Positions 5,657-59,841 of a stretch of 64,000 nucleotides of DNA are shown here, piece by piece (positions within the stretch are counted from its first letter, which is position 1; the number at the start of each line of letters is the position of its first letter). Source of the DNA: Candidatus Riflebacteria bacterium HGW-Riflebacteria-2 (GTDB lineage: Bacteria > Muiribacteriota > Ozemobacteria > Ozemobacterales > Ozemobacteraceae); NCBI GenBank assembly GCA_002839435.1, contig PGYA01000007.1, positions 14,756 through 78,755 of the forward strand. Reading direction: 5' to 3'. The position numbers and the translations under genes were made by a program. The notes beneath the pieces are model-generated. The model made no database searches. It had not been told where the DNA came from and worked only from the letters and a program-made list of their open reading frames with translations.

Positions 5657-7152
5657 GCTCCACTCCCTGTCTGGTCATCAATTATGGCATAAGCCATGCC
5701 TTCAAAAGTTTCATTGTCTTTCACTTTACTATAACTCATAATAAGGTCGCGCTCAATACGTTTGACAAATTTCGGGTGCCAGCCAGTAATTTGCGTCGCC
5801 AGACCGCTCAAAACCGCCTCTTCAAAGTCACTTTCATAAGCAGCATATTTGAGCTGCTTACGGGCAAGAGCGACAAAGTAATATGCACGTGAACGTAGAG
5901 AACCACTCTCGAGGCTATAGGTGAGAAAACGCTGAGCGCCCTCGATCTGACCGACTTTAAACAGGCTTATGCCGACTAGATAATTCAACCATGGTACGTT
6001 AAGATCGCGGGCAATACTGACAAGTTCGCCGAGACAATCAACCGGAGATCTAAAAAAAATCACCGGCAGGCATTTAACAAAGGTCCAGGCGGAACCCAGC
6101 GAAAAACGCATCAGCAGATCTTCGCCAGCTTTCCAGGAATAGTAGACAGCCAGCGGAATGAGTGCAATAAAGAAAAGCAGAAGAAGATACGAAGCCATGA
6201 AAGCCATAAAATGGCACTCAAAGCGGAAGCCCAGTGTCTGATAAGTCTTACCGGACTTTTCATTGCGACTGAAACCCAGTGCCATAAGATAGTCTTTCTG
6301 GCCGTAATAACATTCTGAAAACAACGGAAAAAGAGTATCATCATCAGGATTGAGATGATGATATTTCCAGAAATCAACCAGAGCATCATCGTAATCTTTC
6401 AGTTTGAGATGAGCCTTACCACGTAAAAGCAGGTATTCGATACGATCAGGTGAATCGGCGATCAAAACCGTCAATGCGTTGATCGTTTCAAGCATGCGGC
6501 CTTCCAGAAATGCGGTCTCAGCTTTTTCGACAAAGGTCTCGATCTGGTTGATGTGATCGATTCTGGCCTTCAACGCAAGCGCCGGCTTGTAGTCAGGTTC
6601 GCGCTTGAGTATTACATCAAGCATTTCCATGGATCTGACACGGTCGCCCTGCGCAAAAAAACCTTGCGCCCGGTTCATGTAGGAGATCGTCGAATAACTA
6701 TCGAGATCATGCGCTCGACCACTTGAAACATCGACCTGGATTCCCTGTGATTGGTATTCTTCTATTTTTCGGTATATCACGGTTACCCGCTGCATATTTT
6801 CAAGAGCAAACTGGTTTTCTGGCGATAAAGCCAGCATTTCCTGCAGCAGCTTTTCGGCGTCGGGAACATTTTTTGCCGACAGATAAAACTCGATCTGCTG
6901 CTGAAGTTTATCTATTTTTTCATCCAGCGCCCTCTTGAGCTTGTCAGAGAATTCCTTTACTTTTTCGTCATTCGCATCGATTTTTTCGGCACGCTGTAAA
7001 AAATTGCGGGCCTGGACAAGATTACCGTTGTCAAAGGAAACTTCGGCACGGCGGAGATACTCGCGCGCCTGCCCGCTGTACGCCAAAATCGGGGTTGGCA
7101 CCCCAACCATAAGCAATACAAGTATGCATACTATTAAGTAAACTTTTGTCAT
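5653..7152 (-). CDS. TPR-repeat protein with N-terminal signal/anchor and an internal TM segment
   Basis: Signal-like N-terminus. Several TPR-like helical repeats (e.g. ALGFSRNEKSGKTYQTLGF... AKARIDHINQIETFVEKAETAFLEGR). Internal hydrophobic stretch MAFMASYLLLLFFIALIPLAVYY. Confidence 0.55.
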   Translation of the reverse strand: MTKVYLIVCILVLLMVGVPTPILAYSGQAREYLRRAEVSFDNGNLVQARNFLQRAEKIDANDEKVKEFSDKLKRALDEKIDKLQQQIEFYLSAKNVPDAEKLLQEMLALSPENQFALENMQRVTVIYRKIEEYQSQGIQVDVSSGRAHDLDSYSTISYMNRAQGFFAQGDRVRSMEMLDVILKREPDYKPALALKARIDHINQIETFVEKAETAFLEGRMLETINALTVLIADSPDRIEYLLLRGKAHLKLKDYDDALVDFWKYHHLNPDDDTLFPLFSECYYGQKDYLMALGFSRNEKSGKTYQTLGFRFECHFMAFMASYLLLLFFIALIPLAVYYSWKAGEDLLMRFSLGSAWTFVKCLPVIFFRSPVDCLGELVSIARDLNVPWLNYLVGISLFKVGQIEGAQRFLTYSLESGSLRSRAYYFVALARKQLKYAAYESDFEEAVLSGLATQITGWHPKFVKRIERDLIMSYSKVKDNETFEGMAYAIIDDQTGSGA

Positions 7153-7307: not shown

Positions 7308-8300
<993 letters not shown>

Positions 8301-22192: not shown

Positions 22193-22265
22193 TGTCATTG
22201 CGAGCAAAGCGAAGCAATCTCACAGACAGAAGGATTGCTTCGTCGCTACGCTCCTCGCAATGACA
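22193..22265. repeat. palindromic intergenic element (TGTCATTGCGAG...GAAGCAATC // GATTGCTTC...CTCGCAATGACA), full copy, between convergent genes
   Basis: Nested inverted repeats are readable directly. Related copies occur at 36945, 45765 and 59795. Confidence 0.75.
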
Positions 22266-22302: not shown

Positions 22303-24846
22303 TCAGGTGCTGGAGCGGCGGGCAATCTGTTTTTTGGTGCCGCGGCTGGCGACGGCGATGGTGGGATCATCGGGCCAGGGGTGTTTCGGGTAGCGGCCTT
22401 TGAGCTCTTTTATCACCTGCGGATACCCGGTCTGCCAGAAAGAGGCAAGATCGGCGGTTATCTGTACCGGTCGCCCGGCCGGTGAGAGCAGGTGCACCAG
22501 CAATCGGCACTGGCCATCACAGATGGCTGGCGTCTGTGCCATGCCAAAGAGTTCCTGAATTTTTACAGCGAGAATCGGCGCCGCCTCAGCCGCCTGATAT
22601 TGCAGGCACAGGGCGCTGCCAGAAGGCACTGTAAAGCGCTCAGGCACCAGTTTTTCGAATTTTTCGCGATTTTTCCAGCTTAAATTCTGCAGGTATAACT
22701 GTTCGAGCGACTGCCGCTGCATATCGGCAAAACCGCGACATGTCGATGCCAGCGCGCGTATCTGCATCGCCAGCCAGTCATCGTCGATCGCCGGAAAATC
22801 AGCGCCAGCCCGACAAGCTTTGAGTGTAGTAACCCGGTTGATAAAGTTGCGGTTGGCGTCAGCATCGAGCGCCAGTGCCTTGCCGGGGTCAGCCAGCGCA
22901 GCGGCAACCAGAATTTCGACGGCTGCGTCAGCCTCGTCAGGCCTCACTGCTGCCTCATTTTCGCGCAGCATCAGTTTGCCGTAGAAAACACGCTCGCGCG
23001 CCATAACACGCGCGTGGGACCTGCTGAAAAACAGCTCGCGCCGACGCTGATAGAGACGCTGTTCGGCCAGCAAAGATTCTTCGAGCGCACAGGCAAGAAA
23101 TATCCGGCCGTCACCGATTCTCTGAGTCTGATCCAGGCGTAACGCGAGAATCAGCGGTTCCCCTGGCAACAGCCCGTTTTCACTGATAACAAAACCCTGG
23201 CCACCACAGATAGTATAACTGCCCGAACGCCCGTCACTGCGCCTTTGACAGACACGATCAGGAAATGCCGCGAGCAAAGCCCGGTGCAGTTTGTCGCCAG
23301 AAATTGTGGGCACTTGTGCCGGCTTTCTGCGCATGAGTTCGAGCAGCTGCTTCTGTATGTTATAAATTCTTCTGACCGCGTTGCGGTCAATTTCGATGTC
23401 TGGCGGCAAACTGCCGAGATCGCCGGCGGCAAGAAGCTGGAGACGCCATTCGAGGTCGGCATCGACCCGGTTTCTGCCGGTTCTTAAAAAGTCTTTCTCA
23501 GAAATCACGGCGGCGGCTAAAGCCGCGGTTTCGCCAATGCCAAGCTGCGCGGCAACAATCAGCATGCGCGCCAGCCTGGGCTCAAGCGGCAGTTCTGACA
23601 TCTTGCGACCGGCAGTTGTGATCTTGCCGCTTTCATCTACTGCGCCAAGCATTTGCAGCAGTTCCAGCGAACGCGCAATTTTTTCGGGGCCCGGCGATTG
23701 CAGCCAGTTGAAGTGTAATGGATCGCGACAGCCCCAGGCAAAAAGCTCGAGAACAGCAGAAGTCGGATCGATTCTGAGTATCTCGGGCGGATCGTTTTCG
23801 GCCATCTGATGATGTTCTGGCTGGCTCCAGAGGCGGTAAGCGCGGCCCGGCTTCAGACGACCGGCGCGGCCGGCGCGCTGCGCCGCCGAAGACCGGCTGA
23901 TACGATGCAGACTGAGCTGTTCAAGGCCGCTTTGTGAATCTATTTCGAGCCAGCGTGCTTCGCCGGAGTCGATTACTACGGTGATTCCATCGATGGTCAG
24001 AGAAGTTTCGGCGATATTGGTGCTCAAAATAATGCGCGGCCGCGCGGCTGGTCGCAAAACCTTTTCCTGTTCGCTTACTGGCAACGAACCGTGCAGATGC
24101 ATGATTTGATGCCCGGAAAGACTGGCGGCCAGATGTTCAGATACCCGCATTATTTCGCCCATTCCAGGCAAAAAGACAAGAAATTCCTCGGCGCGGCCAG
24201 ACTCAGCAACTATCTGCGCAATCGCACCGGCCAATTCACCGATGCGGTCACGGCCAGACGAAAAAGGCCGGTATTGAATATCTACCGGGTAAAGAAAGCC
24301 TTTACCTTCTATCAGTTGCGGCCGGTCAAGAAAGCTTTGCGCCAGTTCAAGGTCTGCGGTCGCTGACATCAGCATCAGCCTGAGATCAGGCCGCACCTCA
24401 CGTTTTATTTCGCGGCACAGGGCAAGGCAAAGATCGGTGTGCACCGAGCGTTCGTGAAATTCATCGAAAATTACCAGTCCAACGTCTTCGAGCAGAGGAT
24501 CCTTCTGCAGGCGCCGGGTAAGAATACCCTCGGTAAGCACTTCTATACGTGTTGCCGACGTGATATTGCTGTCGAAGCGGACTCTATGGCCGATCACGGC
24601 ACCTGGCGGCGAAGCGTCGAGACTGGCCATGCGGCGCGCCAGCGCCACGGCAGCGATTCGGCGTGGTTGCAATATCACGATGCGTTTTCCGGCCAGCCAG
24701 GCTTCGTCTTTCAGCGCCAGCGGCACGATGGTAGACTTGCCGGCCCCGGGCGCCGCCGACAGAATCACATCGCGATTATCAGCAAGAGCAGCCTTGATCT
24801 GAGGCAGACTCTCTTCTACCGGAAACCCGCGCGATCTTTGATTCAT
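22303..24846 (-). CDS. hrpB: ATP-dependent DEAH-box helicase HrpB
   Basis: Motifs GAGKST, DEFHER and SATAD are present. The protein is 847 aa with the characteristic HrpB C-terminal domain. Confidence 0.9.
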   Translation of the reverse strand: MNQRSRGFPVEESLPQIKAALADNRDVILSAAPGAGKSTIVPLALKDEAWLAGKRIVILQPRRIAAVALARRMASLDASPPGAVIGHRVRFDSNITSATRIEVLTEGILTRRLQKDPLLEDVGLVIFDEFHERSVHTDLCLALCREIKREVRPDLRLMLMSATADLELAQSFLDRPQLIEGKGFLYPVDIQYRPFSSGRDRIGELAGAIAQIVAESGRAEEFLVFLPGMGEIMRVSEHLAASLSGHQIMHLHGSLPVSEQEKVLRPAARPRIILSTNIAETSLTIDGITVVIDSGEARWLEIDSQSGLEQLSLHRISRSSAAQRAGRAGRLKPGRAYRLWSQPEHHQMAENDPPEILRIDPTSAVLELFAWGCRDPLHFNWLQSPGPEKIARSLELLQMLGAVDESGKITTAGRKMSELPLEPRLARMLIVAAQLGIGETAALAAAVISEKDFLRTGRNRVDADLEWRLQLLAAGDLGSLPPDIEIDRNAVRRIYNIQKQLLELMRRKPAQVPTISGDKLHRALLAAFPDRVCQRRSDGRSGSYTICGGQGFVISENGLLPGEPLILALRLDQTQRIGDGRIFLACALEESLLAEQRLYQRRRELFFSRSHARVMARERVFYGKLMLRENEAAVRPDEADAAVEILVAAALADPGKALALDADANRNFINRVTTLKACRAGADFPAIDDDWLAMQIRALASTCRGFADMQRQSLEQLYLQNLSWKNREKFEKLVPERFTVPSGSALCLQYQAAEAAPILAVKIQELFGMAQTPAICDGQCRLLVHLLSPAGRPVQITADLASFWQTGYPQVIKELKGRYPKHPWPDDPTIAVASRGTKKQIARRSST

Positions 24847-25246
24847 TACTTATCAAAACCTGCTATAGAAATAATTAAACCTGTATATATTCTGCCTACC
24901 CGGGCTCTCGGCGGGATTAGGCCGATCTTACGACTTTAGTCGTTAGAGCGGCGGATCCCTTTAGGGGCCCAACGCTTCAACTCTCACCAGACGAAAACTG
25001 ATTTTAAAAAGCTATGGCTTTGCGTCAAAGGTGCCTGGCTCGGCCTAGCTGCTCTATCCTGCGCAGCTCGGCATAAGCACCTCCCTGTGCAAAAAGTTTA
25101 CGCTTATGGGATACCCACCTGCGCCCTCAATATACTTATTTTTGTATAGAAATGCTTACCAGCAGAGCATGTTGAAGGGATGAACAATATTAACTGCTAC
25201 TATAAAATCGGTTAAATCGGCGGAATCTGCGGATTATTTTCCGCGT

Positions 25247-25765
25247 TTACTTTTGCTGGCGCTTCAAAGTGCCGTCAGTGAACTCGAACACTGCGGTGTC
25301 TTCAACCTGAGGTTCGACGTCGGTGTCGGTATAGGCGATATAAACCCGCTTACGACCGCTGCCGTCGCGATCTTCGATCGAGGCTTCGCCGGCGGCATAA
25401 CCGGTTTCAAGCCAGACTGGCAGATAAACGCCTTCTTTGAAATGCAGCAGCTCAAACTCGCGATAACCGCCGGAACCACCGAGATCCATCTGAATAAGCA
25501 GCTCACCGATACCGTCACCATCGAGGTCTTCGTGAATGACCTGCTGAATGGCGCGCCCTTCCGATTCGAAAACCTCTATGGCTTCGTCGCCCTGCTCAAG
25601 CACAATACTGTCGTTAAAAGCCAGGCCGTCGGGTATGGCAGAGCGCTCTAACACAAGCTTGCCATGCGGCAGTTCAGCGATAATCGAACGCTCTGACGGC
25701 TGGGCGAAGCCTGGAGTTATTCCTGACAACAAAGCGATCAAGACCGAAAAGATGATTTTATTCAT
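25247..25765 (-). CDS. secreted protein of unknown function (DxDGDG motif)
   Basis: RBS AGGGAAA before ATG 25765. Signal peptide MNKIIFSVLIALLSGITPGFAQ. Contains DLDGDGIGE. Confidence 0.45.
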   Translation of the reverse strand: MNKIIFSVLIALLSGITPGFAQPSERSIIAELPHGKLVLERSAIPDGLAFNDSIVLEQGDEAIEVFESEGRAIQQVIHEDLDGDGIGELLIQMDLGGSGGYREFELLHFKEGVYLPVWLETGYAAGEASIEDRDGSGRKRVYIAYTDTDVEPQVEDTAVFEFTDGTLKRQQK

Positions 25766-35053: not shown

Positions 35054-35296
35054 AGAGTATCGCACAAAGACGCAGAGACACGAAAAAAGCCTTAAGACAG
35101 AAGAGTCTCACGCAGAGACGCTGAGGCGCAGGCAAAAGACAAAACCGAAGAACCGCGCACTAAGGCACGGAAACCCAAAGAAGACTTCAGTATGAGAGCA
35201 GAAGGCCCTCACGCAGAGGCCTGAGACCCTGAGGCCAGAAATATTAGAAAACTAATCTTTATTGCAAAACTAATCTATTTTGGTTATATTAGTAAT

Positions 35297-35554
35297 ATGA
35301 AAACCCTTAATGTTAGACTTGATGATTGGACACATAAAAACCTCAAGGCTCTTGCAGCTTTGAAAGAAACAACCATTGCGGAATTACTGAAAATGCTGGT
35401 CGGCAAAGAAATCGAAGAAAACCCTCAAGAGTGCGAACTTTGCCGCAAATTTGGGCATGAACCGAACGAAACTACCAGAAAAGCAATGGCTGAAAAAGGT
35501 GGCAAATCATTCAAGTCGATAAAAGCGCTCATGGAAGACCTGCAGAGTGATTGA
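35297..35554 (+). CDS. type II antitoxin (ribbon-helix-helix, DinJ/RelB-like)
   Basis: N-terminus MKTLNVRLDDWTHKNLKALAA has an RHH beta-strand/helix pattern. It overlaps the downstream YafQ-like toxin gene. Confidence 0.55.
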   Translation: MKTLNVRLDDWTHKNLKALAALKETTIAELLKMLVGKEIEENPQECELCRKFGHEPNETTRKAMAEKGGKSFKSIKALMEDLQSD

Positions 35555-35819
35555 CAAAATCCTTCGTAAAACCCAGTTTAAGAAAGACTTCAAGCGCATC
35601 ATCAAGCAGGGGAAAAATCCCCAGGAAATTTCAAAATTACTGTCCATGCTCATTGAAGAAAAGCCAATCCCGGAAAAGTACAAAGACCATCCTCTTATTG
35701 GTGATTACAGCGGTTATCGGGAACTCCACATAGCACCAGACTGGCTTCTGGTTTACAAAATTGAAGATAATACGCTGACCCTTGCAAGAACAGGTTCTCA
35801 CTCAGAACTTTTTGGCTGA
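35547..35819 (+). CDS. yafQ: type II toxin, YafQ/RelE family mRNA interferase
   Basis: KDFKRIIKQGKNPQEISKLLSMLIE...DHPLIGDYSGYRELHIAPDWLLVYKIEDNTLTLARTGSHSELF matches the YafQ consensus. Confidence 0.8.
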   Translation: MIDKILRKTQFKKDFKRIIKQGKNPQEISKLLSMLIEEKPIPEKYKDHPLIGDYSGYRELHIAPDWLLVYKIEDNTLTLARTGSHSELFG

Positions 35820-36036
35820 TTTTAGAAGAGCCGCGCACAAAGACACGGAGACACAAAGAAAGCCTTTATTTTTTAGAGTTGCAGTCAAATAATTGCCGCC
35901 GGCTTTGTGACTTTGTGGCTCTGTGCGAGAAGAAAAGTCTCACGCTGAGCTGCTGAGGCGCAGGTTTTGCCTTTTTGTTGAAAAACGGGTATTATTATAC
36001 ATATAATCGTATTCGAAATTACAGGAGGCCAATCTT

Positions 36037-36264
36037 ATGGAACGACCAAGAGTTACTTTTACGATCGACAGGAACATCCTGCTCGAGCTCGACAGTATTG
36101 CCAAAGAATTGGGCCAGAAGAAGAGCCACATTGTAGAACAGGCGCTGGAACTTTACTTTGATACTGTTGATACGATGATCGCTGACCGTAGGCTTGACCG
36201 GCTGGCCAGCGGCAAAGATAAAACTATTCCGGCTGAAGACGTCTGGAAGGAACTCGACCTGTAA
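36037..36264 (+). CDS. relB: type II antitoxin (RHH, RelB/DinJ family)
   Basis: RBS CAGGAGG. RVTFTIDRNILLELDSIAKELGQKKSHIVEQALELYF is an RHH fold. Its stop codon overlaps the toxin start. Confidence 0.7.
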   Translation: MERPRVTFTIDRNILLELDSIAKELGQKKSHIVEQALELYFDTVDTMIADRRLDRLASGKDKTIPAEDVWKELDL

Positions 36265-36527
36265 TGTACCGACTGGAATTCCTGCCGGGTGCTGTTAAAG
36301 ATTTGAAAAAGCTGGATTTTGTCGTTCAAAAAATGATCAAAAACAAGCTTGAGATTCTTGCAGACAACCCTGGACAGCTGAAAAACGACATTAAAGCTCT
36401 CAAAGGAAACCATACCGGCAAATACAGATTGCGGGTCAGAGATTATCGCGTGATATTTCAGAGGCGAGATGATGTTCTGATAATTCTGATTGTCGGCATC
36501 GGGCATCGAAAAAGCGTGTACAAATGA
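36264..36527 (+). CDS. relE: type II toxin, RelE/ParE family
   Basis: YRLEFLPGAVKDLKKLD...KYRLRVRDYRVIFQRRDDVLIILIVGIGHRKSVYK matches the RelE consensus (RVGDYRIIY...IGHRKDVY). Confidence 0.8.
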   Translation: MYRLEFLPGAVKDLKKLDFVVQKMIKNKLEILADNPGQLKNDIKALKGNHTGKYRLRVRDYRVIFQRRDDVLIILIVGIGHRKSVYK

Positions 36528-36663
36528 CGATCATAACCATCATTCCGCACCCATAATGTTTTTTCGAGACAGAAGAGACTCGCACGAAGACACAGAGATA
36601 CTAAGAAGATTTTGAGCTGCTCAGCAGCAGCCCACACAAGACAAGCAATCATGACCTGAAATT

Positions 36664-36752
36664 AATCTGCGCCTATCTGTGTAATCACCCGGGCGCTTCC
36701 ATCCTGATGCGCCCAAGTATCACCCACATCCTGTGGGCGACGGCGGATACTG
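36664..36752. repeat. composite MITE-like repeat, copy A (AATCTGCG...ATCACCCGGGCGCTTCCATCCTGATGCGCCCAAGTATCACCCACATCCTGTGGGCGAC.GCGGAT)
   Basis: Near-identical to 47746-47830. Related copies lie at 39587 and 50054. Confidence 0.7.
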
Positions 36753-36785
36753 TCTTTCTCTTAAAAGTCGTATCGGGATCGAAAT

Positions 36786-36832
36786 CGAAAACCAAAACCA
36801 AAACCAAAACCAATACCAATACCGATACCAAT
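36786..36832. repeat. microsatellite (AAACC)4(AATACC)2-like
   Basis: Readable directly from the sequence. Confidence 0.7.
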
Positions 36833-36944
36833 TAGAAGATAAGACATAGGTCTGGATTAGTGGCGGGGATTTTATTGTAATTGCATGTAGACGGAAAAAC
36901 TTTTATCATCGAGATTCAGGAATACGGGCAACCGGTATTTTGCC

Positions 36945-37001
36945 TGTCATTGCGAGGAATTCTGCGTAGCGTTACGCGGAGCAGAATGACGAAGCAATCT
37001 C
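36945..37001. repeat. palindromic-element copy (TGTCATTGCGAGG...GACGAAGCAATCTC), half-site variant with inner hairpin
   Basis: Shares both terminal motifs with the 22193 element. Confidence 0.65.
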
Positions 37002-37073
37002 AAGAAGCTGGCCCTGAAATCCTGATATTGCATGAGTTTCTTATGCAGATGAACTGATGAAAGGGCTGCCATT

Positions 37074-39371: not shown

Positions 39372-39550
39372 TTGCAGTTCGATTGACAAAAGAAATAACC
39401 GAAGAACCTCTCACGAAGGCACAGAGACACCAAGAAAAGCTTTAGCATGAATAGCAGCAAATTTCACATTGAAGCGCTGAAAAGGCTTATCGTGCGTGTC
39501 GCAATCGACATCAGGCCTTCATCCTGCGCGCATAATGACAGAGAGAAACT

Positions 39551-39578
39551 GATTACGATTACGAGCACGAGCACGAAT
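39551..39578. repeat. short tandem repeat (GATTAC)2(GAGCAC)2
   Basis: Same module as at 61590-61676. Confidence 0.6.
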
Positions 39579-39586
39579 TAATATAC

Positions 39587-39681
39587 AAATCTGCGGCAAT
39601 CTGTGTAATCACCCGGGCGCTTCGCCCCTGGGAGCCCTGCGGATTCTCCTATGCTTCTGTGCCTTTGTGGCTTTGTGCGAG
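39587..39681. repeat. composite MITE-like repeat, copy B (shorter)
   Basis: AAATCTGCGGCAATC...ATCACCCGGGCGCTTCGCCCCTGGGAGCCCTGCGGATTCTCC...CTTTGTGGCTTTGTGCGAG. Confidence 0.65.
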
Positions 39682-39846
39682 ATTTGTTTGTCAAAAAATT
39701 TTGCTCTAGTGTAAAAAGTATTTTCGAGAATTAACTACAACCCATATCAGCTACAGTGTATAATATAAGAGAGACAGCGAAAACACAGCCGGATTCTGGC
39801 ATGGTTGTTGCGACATAAAAGCTGGTTGGGCGAGAAGGGGTTGCGT

Positions 39847-45711: not shown

Positions 45712-45764
45712 TTCAGGAGAAGAGGCTCACGCGGAGGCGCAGAAAGGTTATTATGACTGAAAAC

Positions 45765-45850
45765 TGTCATTGCGAGGAGGGCATCAGCCCGACGCGGCAA
45801 TCTCCATGTCCAAAAAGATTGCTTCGTTGGCTTTGCCGACTCGCAATGAC
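45765..45850. repeat. palindromic-element copy (full hairpin) downstream of the giant gene
   Basis: TGTCATTGCGAGG...GGCAATCTC...GATTGCTTCG...CTCGCAATGAC. Confidence 0.7.
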
Positions 45851-45892
45851 GGCAGGAACCTGCTCTGCGGCTCTGCGTAAGAAAAATTCTTT

Positions 45893-47688: not shown

Positions 47689-47745
47689 TTCAAGGTTGAA
47701 CCCCTGCAAAGATCGCTGCTTAAAGCATACCCCACCACCCTTAAA

Positions 47746-47913
47746 AAATCTGCGTTAATCGGCGGCATCACCCGGGCGCTTCCATCCTGATGCGCCCAAG
47801 TATCACCCACATCCTGTGGGCGACTGCGGATGTTCTCCTTCTTCTCCGGGTTTCTGCTCTTCTGCCCAAAGATTTCCGGCTGCCTTCTTTGCGGCTTTGT
47901 GTCTCTGTGCGAG
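47746..47913. repeat. composite MITE-like repeat, copy C (longest, ~170 bp)
   Basis: Contains all three modules in order: AATCTGCG..AATCGGCGGC, ATCACCCGGGCGCTTCCATCC...GCGGATGTTCTCC, and CTTTGCGGCTTTGTGTCTCTGTGCGAG. Confidence 0.7.
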
Positions 47914-47951: not shown

Positions 47952-48578
47952 ATGGCGGGATCGACAAAGAAAAAGCAGCAGCGGTATTCTTACGCAGATT
48001 ATCTGACCTGGGATGACGACAATCGTTACGAGATAATCGACGGTGAAGTATTCGATATGACTTCGCCGAGTTTGCTTCACCAGAGCATAAGTGGTGAATT
48101 GTTCAGACAAATGGCAAACTATTTTGAAGATAAGCCATGTAAAGTATTCGCAGCACCTCTAGACGTGCTGCTGGCAAAGAATGCCAGCAGATCGGACGAA
48201 GTATTTACCGTGGTGCAGCCTGATATCATGGTCGTCTGCGACCCGAAAAAACTCGAGGAACGCGGCATAGTCGGCGCGCCCGACCTGGTGGTAGAGATTA
48301 TCTCGCCGTCAACTTCATCGAAAGACAACATTATCAAGCGCCGGGTCTACGAGCAGGCCGGCGTCAGGGAATTCTGGCTGATAAGCCCGGTCGAGCGTCT
48401 GATCAGGGTGAACAAACTCGGCAAAGACGGCCGCTTCGAGCGCGAAGAAATTTATGACGACACGGCAGAGATCGAGATTGCGCAGTTTGCCGGTTTGAGC
48501 GTCGACTGCCGCCGGCTGTTTCCACCCCTGCCGAAAGTTAAACGGGTAAAATCGCCACCACCACCAAAGTATGGGTGA
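47952..48578 (+). CDS. Uma2-family (DUF820) putative endonuclease
   Basis: YSYADYLTWDDDNRYEIIDGEVFDMTSPSLLHQ...VVQPDIMVV...GAPDLVVEIISPST matches the Uma2 consensus. Confidence 0.8.
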   Translation: MAGSTKKKQQRYSYADYLTWDDDNRYEIIDGEVFDMTSPSLLHQSISGELFRQMANYFEDKPCKVFAAPLDVLLAKNASRSDEVFTVVQPDIMVVCDPKKLEERGIVGAPDLVVEIISPSTSSKDNIIKRRVYEQAGVREFWLISPVERLIRVNKLGKDGRFEREEIYDDTAEIEIAQFAGLSVDCRRLFPPLPKVKRVKSPPPPKYG

Positions 48579-48673
48579 GATTCTCTTGACGCGGTCTGTT
48601 GTACATGCGATATAATAAAGATTGAAAAACGCGATGCTGTTCTCGTTGAAACTTTGCAAGCGGAGATGTGTTT

Positions 48674-48970
48674 ATGAGCCCGGAAGTATCTGAGGTCATC
48701 AGGATTCTTTCAAGCCTGAAAGCCGAAATTAAAGCGCGATTCAAGGCTGATCTCAAAGGAGTTTTCGGTTCTTTCGCCCGCTCTGAAGCAACCCCGGACA
48801 GCGATATCGACATTCTCGTCGATTTTCTGCCATCTGCGAACCTTTTCGATATGGCCGAGCTTACACTTTATTTAGAAGACAAGCTGCATCGCAACATCGA
48901 CCTGGTGCCAGAAAGTGGCATCAGAACGGAATTACGGCAAACAATTCTGCAAGAGGCAATCATGCTGTGA
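48674..48970 (+). CDS. mntA: minimal nucleotidyltransferase (MntA-type antitoxin)
   Basis: [27 protein letters not shown] is the NTase GS-x9-DxD motif. Its stop overlaps the HepT start. Confidence 0.75.
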
Positions 48971-49308
48971 GAAATTTTGTTCTATACCTCGAGGACATTC
49001 TTGCAGCTATTCTTGCCATTGAAGAATTCGTTAAGAACATGGATCTGCAAGGGTTCAAACTTGACGACAAGACCTCGAGCGCGGTGATTCGCAAGTTCGA
49101 AATCATTGGCGAAGCAGCCAAAATGGTGCCCGTAGAAGTTCAGGAGAAATACCCAGAAGTTCCATGGCGAGCCATGGCCAGAATGTGCGACAAACTCATT
49201 CACTTTTACTTTGGGGTGCAACATGAGCTGGTCTGGCACACCATAGCTGATTCTCTGCCAGCCCTGAAGCCACATATCGAAAAGGCGATATCTGAACTGA
49301 AGAATTAA
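48967..49308 (+). CDS. hepT: HepT-like (DUF86) toxin
   Basis: About 113 aa with a DUF86-like helical pattern. It contains R-x4-HxY-like KLIHFYF. The pairing with the upstream NTase supports the call. Confidence 0.7.
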
Positions 49309-49430
49309 TATTATCAGATTGCGATTGCGCCGTTTGCTGGTTTGAGCATCGACTGCCGCCGGCTGTTTCCACCCCTGCCAAAGCCGAAAAAAGTAAAATC
49401 GCCGCCAGCGCCGAAGTATGGGTGATGGTA

Positions 49431-49754
49431 TCAGCTCATTGCCAGCTGGGTTCGAATAGCCTTTTCGACTTTGATCAGATCGTCTGATGAAATGTTGCTG
49501 AACAGGTTAGCGAGACGGGTTTTGCTGACTGTCGTTATCTGGTCGGCCATGGCCTTTACCTGGCGACCGCCCAGCGTCACATAAGCCTCGCTGGGGTAAA
49601 GTCGGTCGGTGCTGGTAGTCAGCGGTATGACCTGAACACGATTGAGAAAACGATTTGAAGAATCATTACTGACTATAATTGCCGGGCGGGTCTTTTTTAT
49701 TTCACCGCCAGCCGCCGAAGCAAAATCGACCCACCAGACTTCACCACGGTTCAT
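49431..49754 (-). CDS. mazF: MazF/PemK family toxin
   Basis: GEVWWVDFASAAGGEIKKTRPAIIVSND...VQVIPLTTS matches the PemK/MazF consensus. Confidence 0.8.
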   Translation of the reverse strand: MNRGEVWWVDFASAAGGEIKKTRPAIIVSNDSSNRFLNRVQVIPLTTSTDRLYPSEAYVTLGGRQVKAMADQITTVSKTRLANLFSNISSDDLIKVEKAIRTQLAMS

Positions 49755-49971
49755 CTATGGTTTCTCCAAGGGTTCCTTCGCACCATTCTTCGGCTTCACG
49801 TTCTCTTGCTTCGTCTTTTGCCATTTTTTTGTATTCAGAATCGAGAGAGTTGCCCAGAACATGTGGCCGCAGCAAATCTTCGATAAACTGGCTGATTTTG
49901 CCGCGGCCGATAACCCGGTGCAGCCTTTCGTATACCTGTTCGTCGAGCGTGATAGTCAATTTTTTATGCAT
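49741..49971 (-). CDS. antitoxin (RHH/MazE-like) partner of MazF
   Basis: 76 aa, MHKKLTITLDEQVYERLHRV, with an acidic C-terminus. It overlaps mazF by 14 nt. Confidence 0.6.
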   Translation of the reverse strand: MHKKLTITLDEQVYERLHRVIGRGKISQFIEDLLRPHVLGNSLDSEYKKMAKDEAREREAEEWCEGTLGETIDEPW

Positions 49972-50053: not shown

Positions 50054-50144
50054 AAATCGGCGGCAATCGGCGCAATCTGCGGTTTCTGCTCTTCTGGCCT
50101 AAGTTGGCGGCTGCATTCTTTGCGGCTTTGTGTCTTTGTGCGAG
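50054..50144. repeat. composite MITE-like repeat, copy D (internally deleted)
   Basis: AATCGGCGGCAATCGGCGCAATCTGCGG...CTTTGCGGCTTTGTGTCTTTGTGCGAG. Confidence 0.65.
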
Positions 50145-59794: not shown

Positions 59795-59833
59795 GAGATT
59801 GCTTCGTCGGACTTTCGCCCGCCTCGCAATAAC
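59795..59833. repeat. palindromic-element half copy (GAGATTGCTTCGTC...CCTCGCAATAAC)
   Basis: Matches the right half of the 22193 element. Confidence 0.55.
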
Positions 59834-59841
59834 TGTTCATC

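Follow-up and report, generated by a model that had tools for sequence, protein, structure and literature searches.

BOX elements of Streptococcus pneumoniae, which are organized as boxA-boxB(n)-boxC, are modular, intergenic repeats with hairpin potential and no encoded transposase, and the minimal mobile elements and dRS3/Correia-flanked slots of Neisseria comprise conserved flanking genes that enclose different small cassettes in each lineage, with short repeats at the borders. REP (repetitive extragenic palindromic) sequences lie mostly downstream of genes and are plausibly transcribed, some families have no dedicated transposase, and the REP stem is adjoined by a tag, either GTAG or CGTC (PMC3733652). 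Here, we describe the intergenic repeats of a 64,000-nt stretch of Candidatus Riflebacteria bacterium HGW-Riflebacteria-2 (contig PGYA01000007.1, positions 14,756–78,755), referred to as the window. A previous reading of the letters alone (the sequence-only reading) had interpreted them as a single composite family resembling MITEs (miniature inverted-repeat transposable elements) that flanks toxin-antitoxin (TA) modules. The repeats consist of two types of short-period array, M1 and M3, and a 55-nt double-hairpin core (module 2). On balance, we consider the locus probably to be a set of extragenic mosaic repeats of the REP, bacterial interspersed mosaic element (BIME), and BOX kind that includes a copy-paste hairpin module, and not one transposon.

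The likeness to the REPs and BIMEs of Enterobacteria and Pseudomonas (REPIN/RAYT) lies in short, GC-rich, imperfect palindromes that are extragenic, multi-copy, and arranged in mosaics with other short motifs. The core differs from REPs in having no GTAG/CGTC tag, with a 5' flank of AGTC in most copies (26/30) and CGTC in 4/30, and in a stem that begins with GC, not AT. Furthermore, its two hairpins are unlike each other and form no inverted doublet, the unit sits at a fixed base of a decamer array, and no RAYT was found in 435 kb. Modular organization, sub-modules that vary in number and presence, intergenic location, hairpin potential, and the lack of an encoded transposase are shared with BOX, but the sequence is unrelated, the phylum is different, and the modules here are short-period arrays (6, 9, and 10 nt) that very often occur alone. 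An intergenic slot between conserved genes, cassettes that vary by lineage, and short repeats at the borders recall the Neisseria slots, although the repeats themselves are unrelated. Literature searches, including those for Riflebacteria repeats and for intergenic repeats generally, found no description of these sequences.

Modular composition of the repeats and insertion of the core

All of the repeat copies that had been listed for the window were present in their places and were far above chance expectation, as judged by pattern scans, repeat mapping, and direct reading. M1 comprises (CGCAGATNN)n arrays with CGCAGAT units at 9–10-nt spacing, and M3 (CTCGCACARAGMCACARAG) is a purine-rich array with a 9-nt period. 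The M1 pattern AATCKGCGNNAATCKGYG (AATC[TG]GCG units) produced four matches in the window (36664, 39588, 47747, and 50055) compared with 0.47 expected, and a fifth M1 array, absent from the earlier list, is located at 25209–25236. For the M3 pattern CTCKCACARAGMCACARAG, there were eight matches compared with 0.20 expected, a count reached in 0/100 shuffles, and looser matches occurred at 35107, 45726, and 45863. Two full copies of the core, 55 nt each, are located 11 kb apart at 36686–36740 (minus strand, reading TCGCCCACAGGATGTGGGTGATACTTGGGCGCATCAGGATGGAAGCGCCCGGGTG) and 47769–47823 (minus strand), and the two are 64/65 identical across a 65-nt BLAST match.

The family is modular with internal deletions, as had been proposed, and the four aligned composites of the window differ by whole blocks. 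The fullest, which runs from 47913 to 47741 on the minus strand, has the order M3 (CTCGCACAGAGACACAAAGCCGCAAAG), spacer, purine-rich linker, ATCCGCAG, 55-nt core, ATGCCGCCGATTAACGCAGAT (M1 units), and T-run. The core is absent from the composite at 50055 and is reduced to an internally deleted 27-nt remnant (39610–39636) in the composite at 39588; the composite at 36664 has no M3, with a hexamer microsatellite in its place. Half of the M3 copies are reverse complements of the other half. The sequences previously described as degenerate fragments of module 3 (35060–35235, 35821–35965, 36555–36640, and 39401–39445) exist as listed, but most of them correspond to the reverse complement of M3 copies inside the composites. 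Modules also occur beside non-TA genes (39372–39684, 45718–45751, and 25209–25236). The intergenic DNA of this Riflebacteria lineage is assembled from independent short modules, and the core is the distinctive piece: it behaves as a copy-paste-like unit with an exact insertion point in the decamer array.

Copies of the core were collected in two scans. One genome per GTDB species was scanned with CCACAGGATGTGGN{15,19}CAGGATGG, which gave 20 loci, eight of them with window-type flanks: three metagenome-assembled genomes (MAGs) of Riflebacteria, namely HGW-Riflebacteria-1 (three contigs), GWC2_50_8, and Rifleibacterium amylolyticum, along with an unclassified MAG (two loci) and a 1.7-kb contig assigned to a Nitrospirota bin. 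JGI metagenomes, scanned with anchors elsewhere in the core, contributed another 29 loci; contigs identical to the window are present in JGI sample 3300038336 and ENA ERZ27239240, and the 765-aa protein encoded in the window matches an HGW-Riflebacteria-2 protein at 100% identity. Thirty distinct intergenic contexts of Riflebacteria-type MAGs align gap-free across the core; the flanks vary, while the columns that the search patterns left free show almost no variation. The family is therefore dispersed and is not a local duplication: the core occupies these 30 contexts and is found on three different contigs of HGW-Riflebacteria-1 alone. Many copies sit where contigs end, as would be anticipated for a repeat with many copies. 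The core pattern was absent from IMG/VR, and the composite had no BLAST match among PLSDB plasmids or INPHARED phages.

The core alignment was turned into a covariance model, which was searched over 355 kb and recovered every full copy and the remnant in the window, along with two extra copies, of which one is conserved and the other diverged. The full window cores scored 114.6 bits (36686–36740) and 113.3 bits (47769–47823), and the remnant scored 26.5 bits (E=2.6e-5). The model also returned ~18 distinct 50-nt matches in which the flanks are joined and the core is missing, i.e., empty arrays with the junction ATCCGCAG|ATTACGCAGAT. Comparison of empty arrays (...AGAGTTATCCGCAG|ATTACGCAGATGG...) with filled ones (...ATCCGCAG[TCGCC...CCCGGGTG]ATTACGCAGATGG...) indicates that the core invariably follows CGCAG and precedes ATT within one M1 unit and has a single orientation. 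Module 2 had been described as a separate block beside module 1, but it is instead inserted inside one M1 unit. Between filled CGCAG[core]ATT and empty CGCAG|ATT, at most 1 nt is ambiguous and any duplication is at most 1 nt, and the core ends, TCGCCCAC... and ...CCCGGGTG, form no terminal inverted repeat. Neither terminal inverted repeats nor target-site duplications were seen at the core, in the filled and empty junctions or in the 30-context alignment; with modules that also occur independently of each other, the proposal of a single composite MITE is not borne out. Among paralogous arrays whose downstream sequence is near-identical, some are filled and others empty (L039 versus L026). Variant cores (loop GGAGG and loop GATAGA) are common to copies with unrelated flanks, and all four combinations of the variants were found, which suggests exchange among core copies.

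An IS200/IS605-type mini-element, with IS608 as the reference, was considered for the core because its insertion is target-specific and orientation-fixed and has no target-site duplication, but it fits poorly: the hairpins abut the ends and leave no room for guide sequences, and they are dissimilar. Separately, an IS110-family transposase gene (DEDD_Tnp_IS110 plus Transposase_20; L024 90–1118) is located ~340 nt from the core composite on the 1.7-kb contig binned as Nitrospirota. The repeat region of this contig is near-identical to that of the Riflebacteria-type locus L009; therefore, the contig is probably mis-binned.

Fold of the core and similar motifs

On the minus strand, the core forms a pair of neighboring hairpins (9 and 10+2 base pairs), each with a CAGGAUG loop. 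Fold z-scores were −3.95 and −3.02 on the minus strand compared with −3.00 and −2.21 on the plus strand. Across the aligned copies, the two-hairpin pairing holds in 98.9% of cells on the CAGGAUG strand versus 86% on the other, and all six one-sided stem changes (6/6) keep pairing via G-U on the CAGGAUG strand, which argues for a folded form on that strand, as RNA or single-stranded DNA. GGA is conserved in 30/30 copies in loop A and 30/30 in loop B, the motif starts are 26 nt apart, and the CAGGA of the loop is conserved even where the adjoining loop bases vary. A closing stem, P1 (AAUCUGCG with CUGCGGAU), was predicted on the plus strand and was rejected on two grounds: it would require G-U pairs on the very strand whose hairpins contain A-C mismatches, and the 5' flank is just another M1 unit.

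Rfam searches of the window returned nothing at the gathering threshold, with only chance-level matches at E up to 5–10. Bacillaceae-1 RNA (RF01690) resembles the core in having two hairpins, RUCCU loops on one strand (CAUCCUG on the plus strand of the window), and multiple copies, and an exact 13-mer, CCACAGGATGTGG, together with CAGGATGG, is common to the Alkalihalobacillus copies and the core. However, the window scored 15.6 bits (plus strand, E=2.3) against a gathering score of 35, the flanks and second stem are unrelated, and the Riflebacteria pairing favors the opposite strand (98.9% versus 86%). The resemblance is real, but the core is not a member of this family. The Alkalihalobacillus loci from the first pattern scan are bona fide Bacillaceae-1 copies on the strand opposite to CAGGAUG. 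At these loci (L005, L007, L013, and L014), the Rfam strand carries AUCCU loops, and the second stem, inspected by eye, has U-G on the CAGGAUG strand versus C-A on the Rfam strand. The copies lie in ~190-nt tandem repeat units, and their strand assignment may deserve a second look.

A further two-hairpin motif, CCCACAGGAUGUGGG-AAGUG-stem(loop ..CAGGAUGG..)-stem, was observed at L008 7536–7573, L010 1381–1417 and ~1002–1039, L017 7899–7935, and L018 21–60. The hosts are Gammaproteobacteria, Leptonemataceae (twice, in a tRNA-adjacent tandem duplication), Pseudobdellovibrionaceae, and an unclassified MAG; the second stem, though it still pairs, is not the same from host to host, and no Rfam family matched at its gathering score.

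Inheritance, placement, and neighbors of the arrays

Syntenic loci were obtained through homologues of the 765-aa protein of the window, with amino acid identities of 85% (L054), 68% (L055), and 61% (L056, HGW-Riflebacteria-1). In L054, the M1 array orthologous to that at 39588 has neither the core remnant (TAATC|TGTGGATT) nor the hexamer block. The whole 310-nt block 39372–39684 is missing from HGW-1 and L055, in which the stop codon is almost directly before a conserved promoter-like region. The M3 array downstream of the DUF3806 gene is present in all three syntenic lineages with different unit numbers, namely four in the window, two in L055, and five in HGW-Riflebacteria-1 (L056 7476–7740), and the composite at 50055 is kept module by module, at ~90% identity, in the 84%-identity relative L297. 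From these comparisons, the arrays behave as intergenic DNA that is inherited and that gains and loses sequence block by block. No full core was present in 55.6 kb of syntenic DNA from four relatives. The core appears to be gained and lost faster than species diverge, while its own sequence barely changes.

The array at L056 7476–7740 consists of five tandem units of ~52 nt (M3 + UUUUAGUUAGCAGCCGAAGAG) directly after the DUF3806 gene, and L023 2496–2630 contains tandem ~84-nt units of M1 + GAGAGAUGGUUAGCAGGCC...; both are higher-order minisatellites made of the same modules.

M3 is placed shortly behind stop codons or, in antisense, ahead of promoters, and its direction is away from the nearest gene. 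Six window genes or operons are followed by a sense M3 at 6–52 nt after the stop codon (35053, 35819, 36527, 39371, 45711, and, on the minus strand, 50170), and four gene starts in the window are preceded by an antisense M3. In 273 kb of Riflebacteria-type loci, the direction of M3 relative to the nearest gene, by crude ORF-based calls, was away in 34 cases and toward in 12, with six inside open reading frames (ORFs). The arrays extend far beyond this lineage, and those of the M1 and M3 types are common across unrelated metagenomic contigs. Scans of IMG/VR gave at least 120 matches each for the three-unit M1 and three-unit M3 patterns, which by estimate are far too specific for chance matches. 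Among the matches listed, GC content spans 0.27–0.74, neighboring M3 arrays are convergent in 60 cases, divergent in 12, and direct in 28, and neighboring M1 arrays are convergent in 73, divergent in five, and direct in 33. The arms of convergent pairs are 20–120 nt apart and in many cases take up the space from a stop codon to the next start. In these matches, the two arms do not keep their variable inter-heptamer bases complementary, which argues that it is the heptamer itself that is conserved and not a perfect hairpin.

It is conceivable, though rather unlikely, that the phased (CGCAGATNN)3 and (CRCAGAGRC)3 arrays are a widespread, undescribed gene-boundary punctuation read by a conserved host factor and that the 55-nt core is a transposase-less "homing" module that copies into CGCAG^ATT. 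Such punctuation may point away from genes, usually as convergent pairs, in many bacterial lineages. If it is true that phased arrays of the CGCAGA type signal gene boundaries across phyla, they would imply an unrecognized factor at transcript or replication boundaries.

Both TA islets of the window are bracketed by modules, as had been noted. By Pfam assignment, the islet at 35297–36527 comprises a DUF6290-like (HicB/ParD-like) antitoxin with a YafQ-family toxin (TA1) and a ribbon-helix-helix antitoxin with a ParE-family toxin (TA2), and the islet at 47952–49971 comprises Uma2, MNT/HepT, and a VapB-like antitoxin with MazF. The slot between the DUF3806 and MFS/spermidine-synthase genes holds two TA pairs in the window, PIN/MazE in L055, where it is flanked by two M1+M3 copies (7030–7085 and 7960–8000), and no TA pair in HGW-1. 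These differing contents support the label of hot spot for the slot downstream of DUF3806. The broader claim that the modules mark hot spots of TA acquisition holds to the extent that different cassettes fill one slot in relatives, but the modules are not TA-specific and one cassette was inserted without any module. This is MNT/HepT (48579–49315), which is flanked by a 110-nt direct repeat of the Uma2 3' end (48469–48578 and 49316–49425; 93/110 identical); in L297 (84% identity), there is a single copy of the Uma2 3' segment and no MNT/HepT. TA genes were not seen to be enriched next to the core: within 1.2 kb of the 28 core copies outside the window, most ORFs are housekeeping genes (MutS2, sigma-54, NadA, type II secretion system proteins, RNase HII, and others), and ~2–3/28 of these contexts, as a raw count, have TA-like neighbors, i.e., one HigB/helix-turn-helix pair and one or two TA-like or defense-like small proteins. 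The private spacer common to the composites at 47747 and 50055 indicates that this pair may be a local duplication linked to formation of the islet.

A DDE_Tnp_1 (IS4/IS5-type) transposase gene interrupts the Uma2 region of L297 (9949–11526), so the same slot also takes ordinary insertion sequence (IS) elements.

Weighing of explanations

A non-autonomous composite transposon, with inverted M3 arms as transposase-binding ends and with TA cassettes as cargo or target, would account for the inverted M3 pairs at 35832/35911 and 39408/39663, the absence of the 310-nt block from HGW-1 and L055, the convergent inverted pairs of 90–180 nt that M1/M3 arms form in many other metagenomic contigs, and the TA islets located between direct copies (47747 and 50055 in the window; L055). 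We consider a MITE of this kind improbable. No target-site duplication was present at any junction examined, including the M1 palindromes of other contigs, and M3 is also found in direct tandem arrays and singly behind stop codons, with inverted arms in only two of five window composites. Complementarity between the two arms is not maintained at the variable spacer bases, and the occurrence of the same arms over the full GC range would require one transposase specificity across very many lineages. The lack of a nearby transposase was borne out for the family in the window, and neither a transposase with such ends nor a related autonomous IS element was found in the DNA searched; moreover, the core has no terminal inverted repeats and a composite is conserved at an orthologous site (50055 in L297). 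A system of integron-like or Campbell-type recombination sites that loads TA cassettes is very improbable. It would explain different cassettes in the same intergenic slot of relatives and the direct M1+M3 copies that flank cassettes in L055 and, with a private spacer, at 47747 and 50055. However, pairs of attC R'' (RYYYAAC) and R' (GTTRRRY) boxes numbered zero in four module regions and four in the whole window, and the gene lists beside the arrays contained no integrase domain, the window not having been scanned systematically for one. MNT/HepT came in with 110 nt of a coding 3' end duplicated, the core has housekeeping genes beside it in most of its contexts, and M3 follows ordinary genes too.

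The fold of the core raises a different explanation, a structured RNA motif that binds a protein via its two loops, as either a CsrA/Rsm-type GGA-loop decoy or a relative of Bacillaceae-1 RNA, with many copies acting as sponge-like sites. The two adjacent CAGGAUG hairpins with motif starts 26 nt apart, the conservation of CAGGA despite variable adjoining bases, and the G-U-consistent pairing on the CAGGAUG strand are all compatible with this. The CCCACAGGAUGUGGG + CAGGAUGG signature also recurs in unrelated phyla, with second stems that covary by eye, and at Bacillaceae-1 loci, and RF01690 is the best Rfam match, though sub-threshold. We nevertheless regard an RNA motif as unlikely. The core has no fixed orientation to genes, being sense to the upstream gene in nine contexts and antisense in 14 by crude gene calls. 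In L015, a stop codon precedes the element by 10 nt, too short a distance for a promoter of its own, no dedicated promoter is conserved, and promoter and terminator scans gave counts within ~2 standard deviations of shuffled means, with no consistent core transcription unit. The core is not kept at orthologous sites and its stems are invariant, not covarying. The CsrA site is usually cited as A(N)GGA, whereas the loop here reads CAGGA; Rfam places Bacillaceae-1 on the opposite strand, the window matched no Csr/Rsm family in Rfam, and no csrA was found by tblastn in the 435 kb.

For the mosaic-repeat reading, which we favor, we infer that the arrays would be inherited with their intergenic regions and that slippage and recombination would make them longer or shorter and swap blocks among them. 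Copy-paste would account for the spread or loss of the core between arrays, possibly through short-tract gene conversion with the flanking M1 units as homology or through some site-specific enzyme that works in trans. In transcribed or single-stranded form, the core hairpins might serve as protein-binding or transcript-boundary elements, a role that has been proposed for REPs. TA cassettes may gather in the same permissive intergenic hot spots, and the dispersed modules may provide homology for cassette exchange in a way that is not TA-specific. Some observations weigh against this reading. No mobilizing enzyme was found, and tblastn searches for E. coli RAYT and IS608 TnpA (IS200/RAYT Y1 transposases), CsrA, and Hfq found nothing in the 435 kb, which is a fraction of any genome. 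The exact-pattern scans by which core copies were collected favor conserved copies. In the 30-context alignment, there was no double compensatory change in either stem, so the support for the structure comes from the G-U asymmetry and helix length, and the invariance of the stems as well as the loops could reflect recent spread and not function.

Almost all knowledge of candidate-phylum genomes comes from MAGs, and these repeats break assemblies, with many copies at contig ends, and create spurious ORFs. They also mark intergenic slots of TA cassette turnover between close relatives. A core that is near-invariant across species, is not kept at orthologous sites, and occupies a fixed base of a decamer array offers a clean system in which to study how REP-like elements spread without an obvious transposase.

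Positions of the remaining modules and other features of the window

At the first TA islet, a tandem M3 array of ~4 units of ~48 nt with a 9-nt sub-period (35054–35235, plus strand) starts 6 nt after the stop codon of the DUF3806 gene. The region 35829–35964 carries M3 on both strands: a unit at 35829–35863 (plus) located 13 nt after the TA1 stop codon, its inverted partner at 35893–35930 (minus), and an M3-like unit at 35931–35964 (plus), such that 35832–35929 is an inverted M3 pair. Another M3 unit (36555–36607, plus) lies 52 nt after the stop codon of TA2 (ParE-type). The first full core is bordered on its 3' side by M1 decamer units (36664–36685, minus; CGCAGAT-type on that strand) and on its 5' side by the 5' half of the interrupted M1 unit (36741–36748, minus; ATCCGCCG). 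The adjacent hexamer microsatellite block (36770–36830; GGTTTT/GGTATT type on the minus strand) is a frequent companion of the composite, and related blocks are present in L009, L023, and L024.

The left arm of the 39372–39684 block is an M3 unit at 39405–39436 (plus), 37 nt after the stop codon of the fused MFS/spermidine-synthase gene, and the right inverted arm is an M3 unit at 39658–39682 (minus), upstream of the promoter of a giant Kelch-repeat gene. Between them lie a hexamer block (39552–39578; GATTAC/GAGCAC), missing at the orthologous L054 site, and the M1 array with the core remnant (39587–39644, minus), whose ortholog in this 85%-identity relative is empty. An M3-like unit at 45718–45751 (plus) is 15 nt after the stop codon of a 1968-aa gene, with a second, inverted unit at 45863–45881 (minus).

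The second full core is bordered on its 3' side by M1 units (47747–47768, minus) and then a T-run (47741–47746 on the minus strand). Its 5' side (47824–47913, minus) comprises the M1 half-unit (47824–47831), the purine-rich linker, a spacer common only to the composite at 50055, and M3 (47887–47913), and lies 39 nt upstream of the Uma2 gene. The core-less composite at 50054–50144 (minus), 26 nt after the stop codon of a 244-aa gene, contains M3 (50144–50118), the spacer, three M1 units, and a T-run. The isolated core-less M1 array at 25209–25236 (minus; 17.7 bits) is outside the TA region.

Positions 24880–25140 form a GC-rich, 260-nt intergenic stretch between two minus-strand genes with many short complementary segments; no Rfam match was obtained even at E up to 1 (24700–25400 searched), and no tRNA or tmRNA was found. 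Another dispersed palindromic element, of the type GTCATTGCGAG...GAAGCAATC...GATTGCTTCG...CTCGCAATGAC, is intergenic at 22195–22265, 36938–37010, 45765–45860, and 59795–59835 in the window and is also present at L054 ~205–245 and L056 ~7920–7975. In three lineages, one copy of this element separates the promoter of the MFS/spermidine-synthase gene from the gene start.

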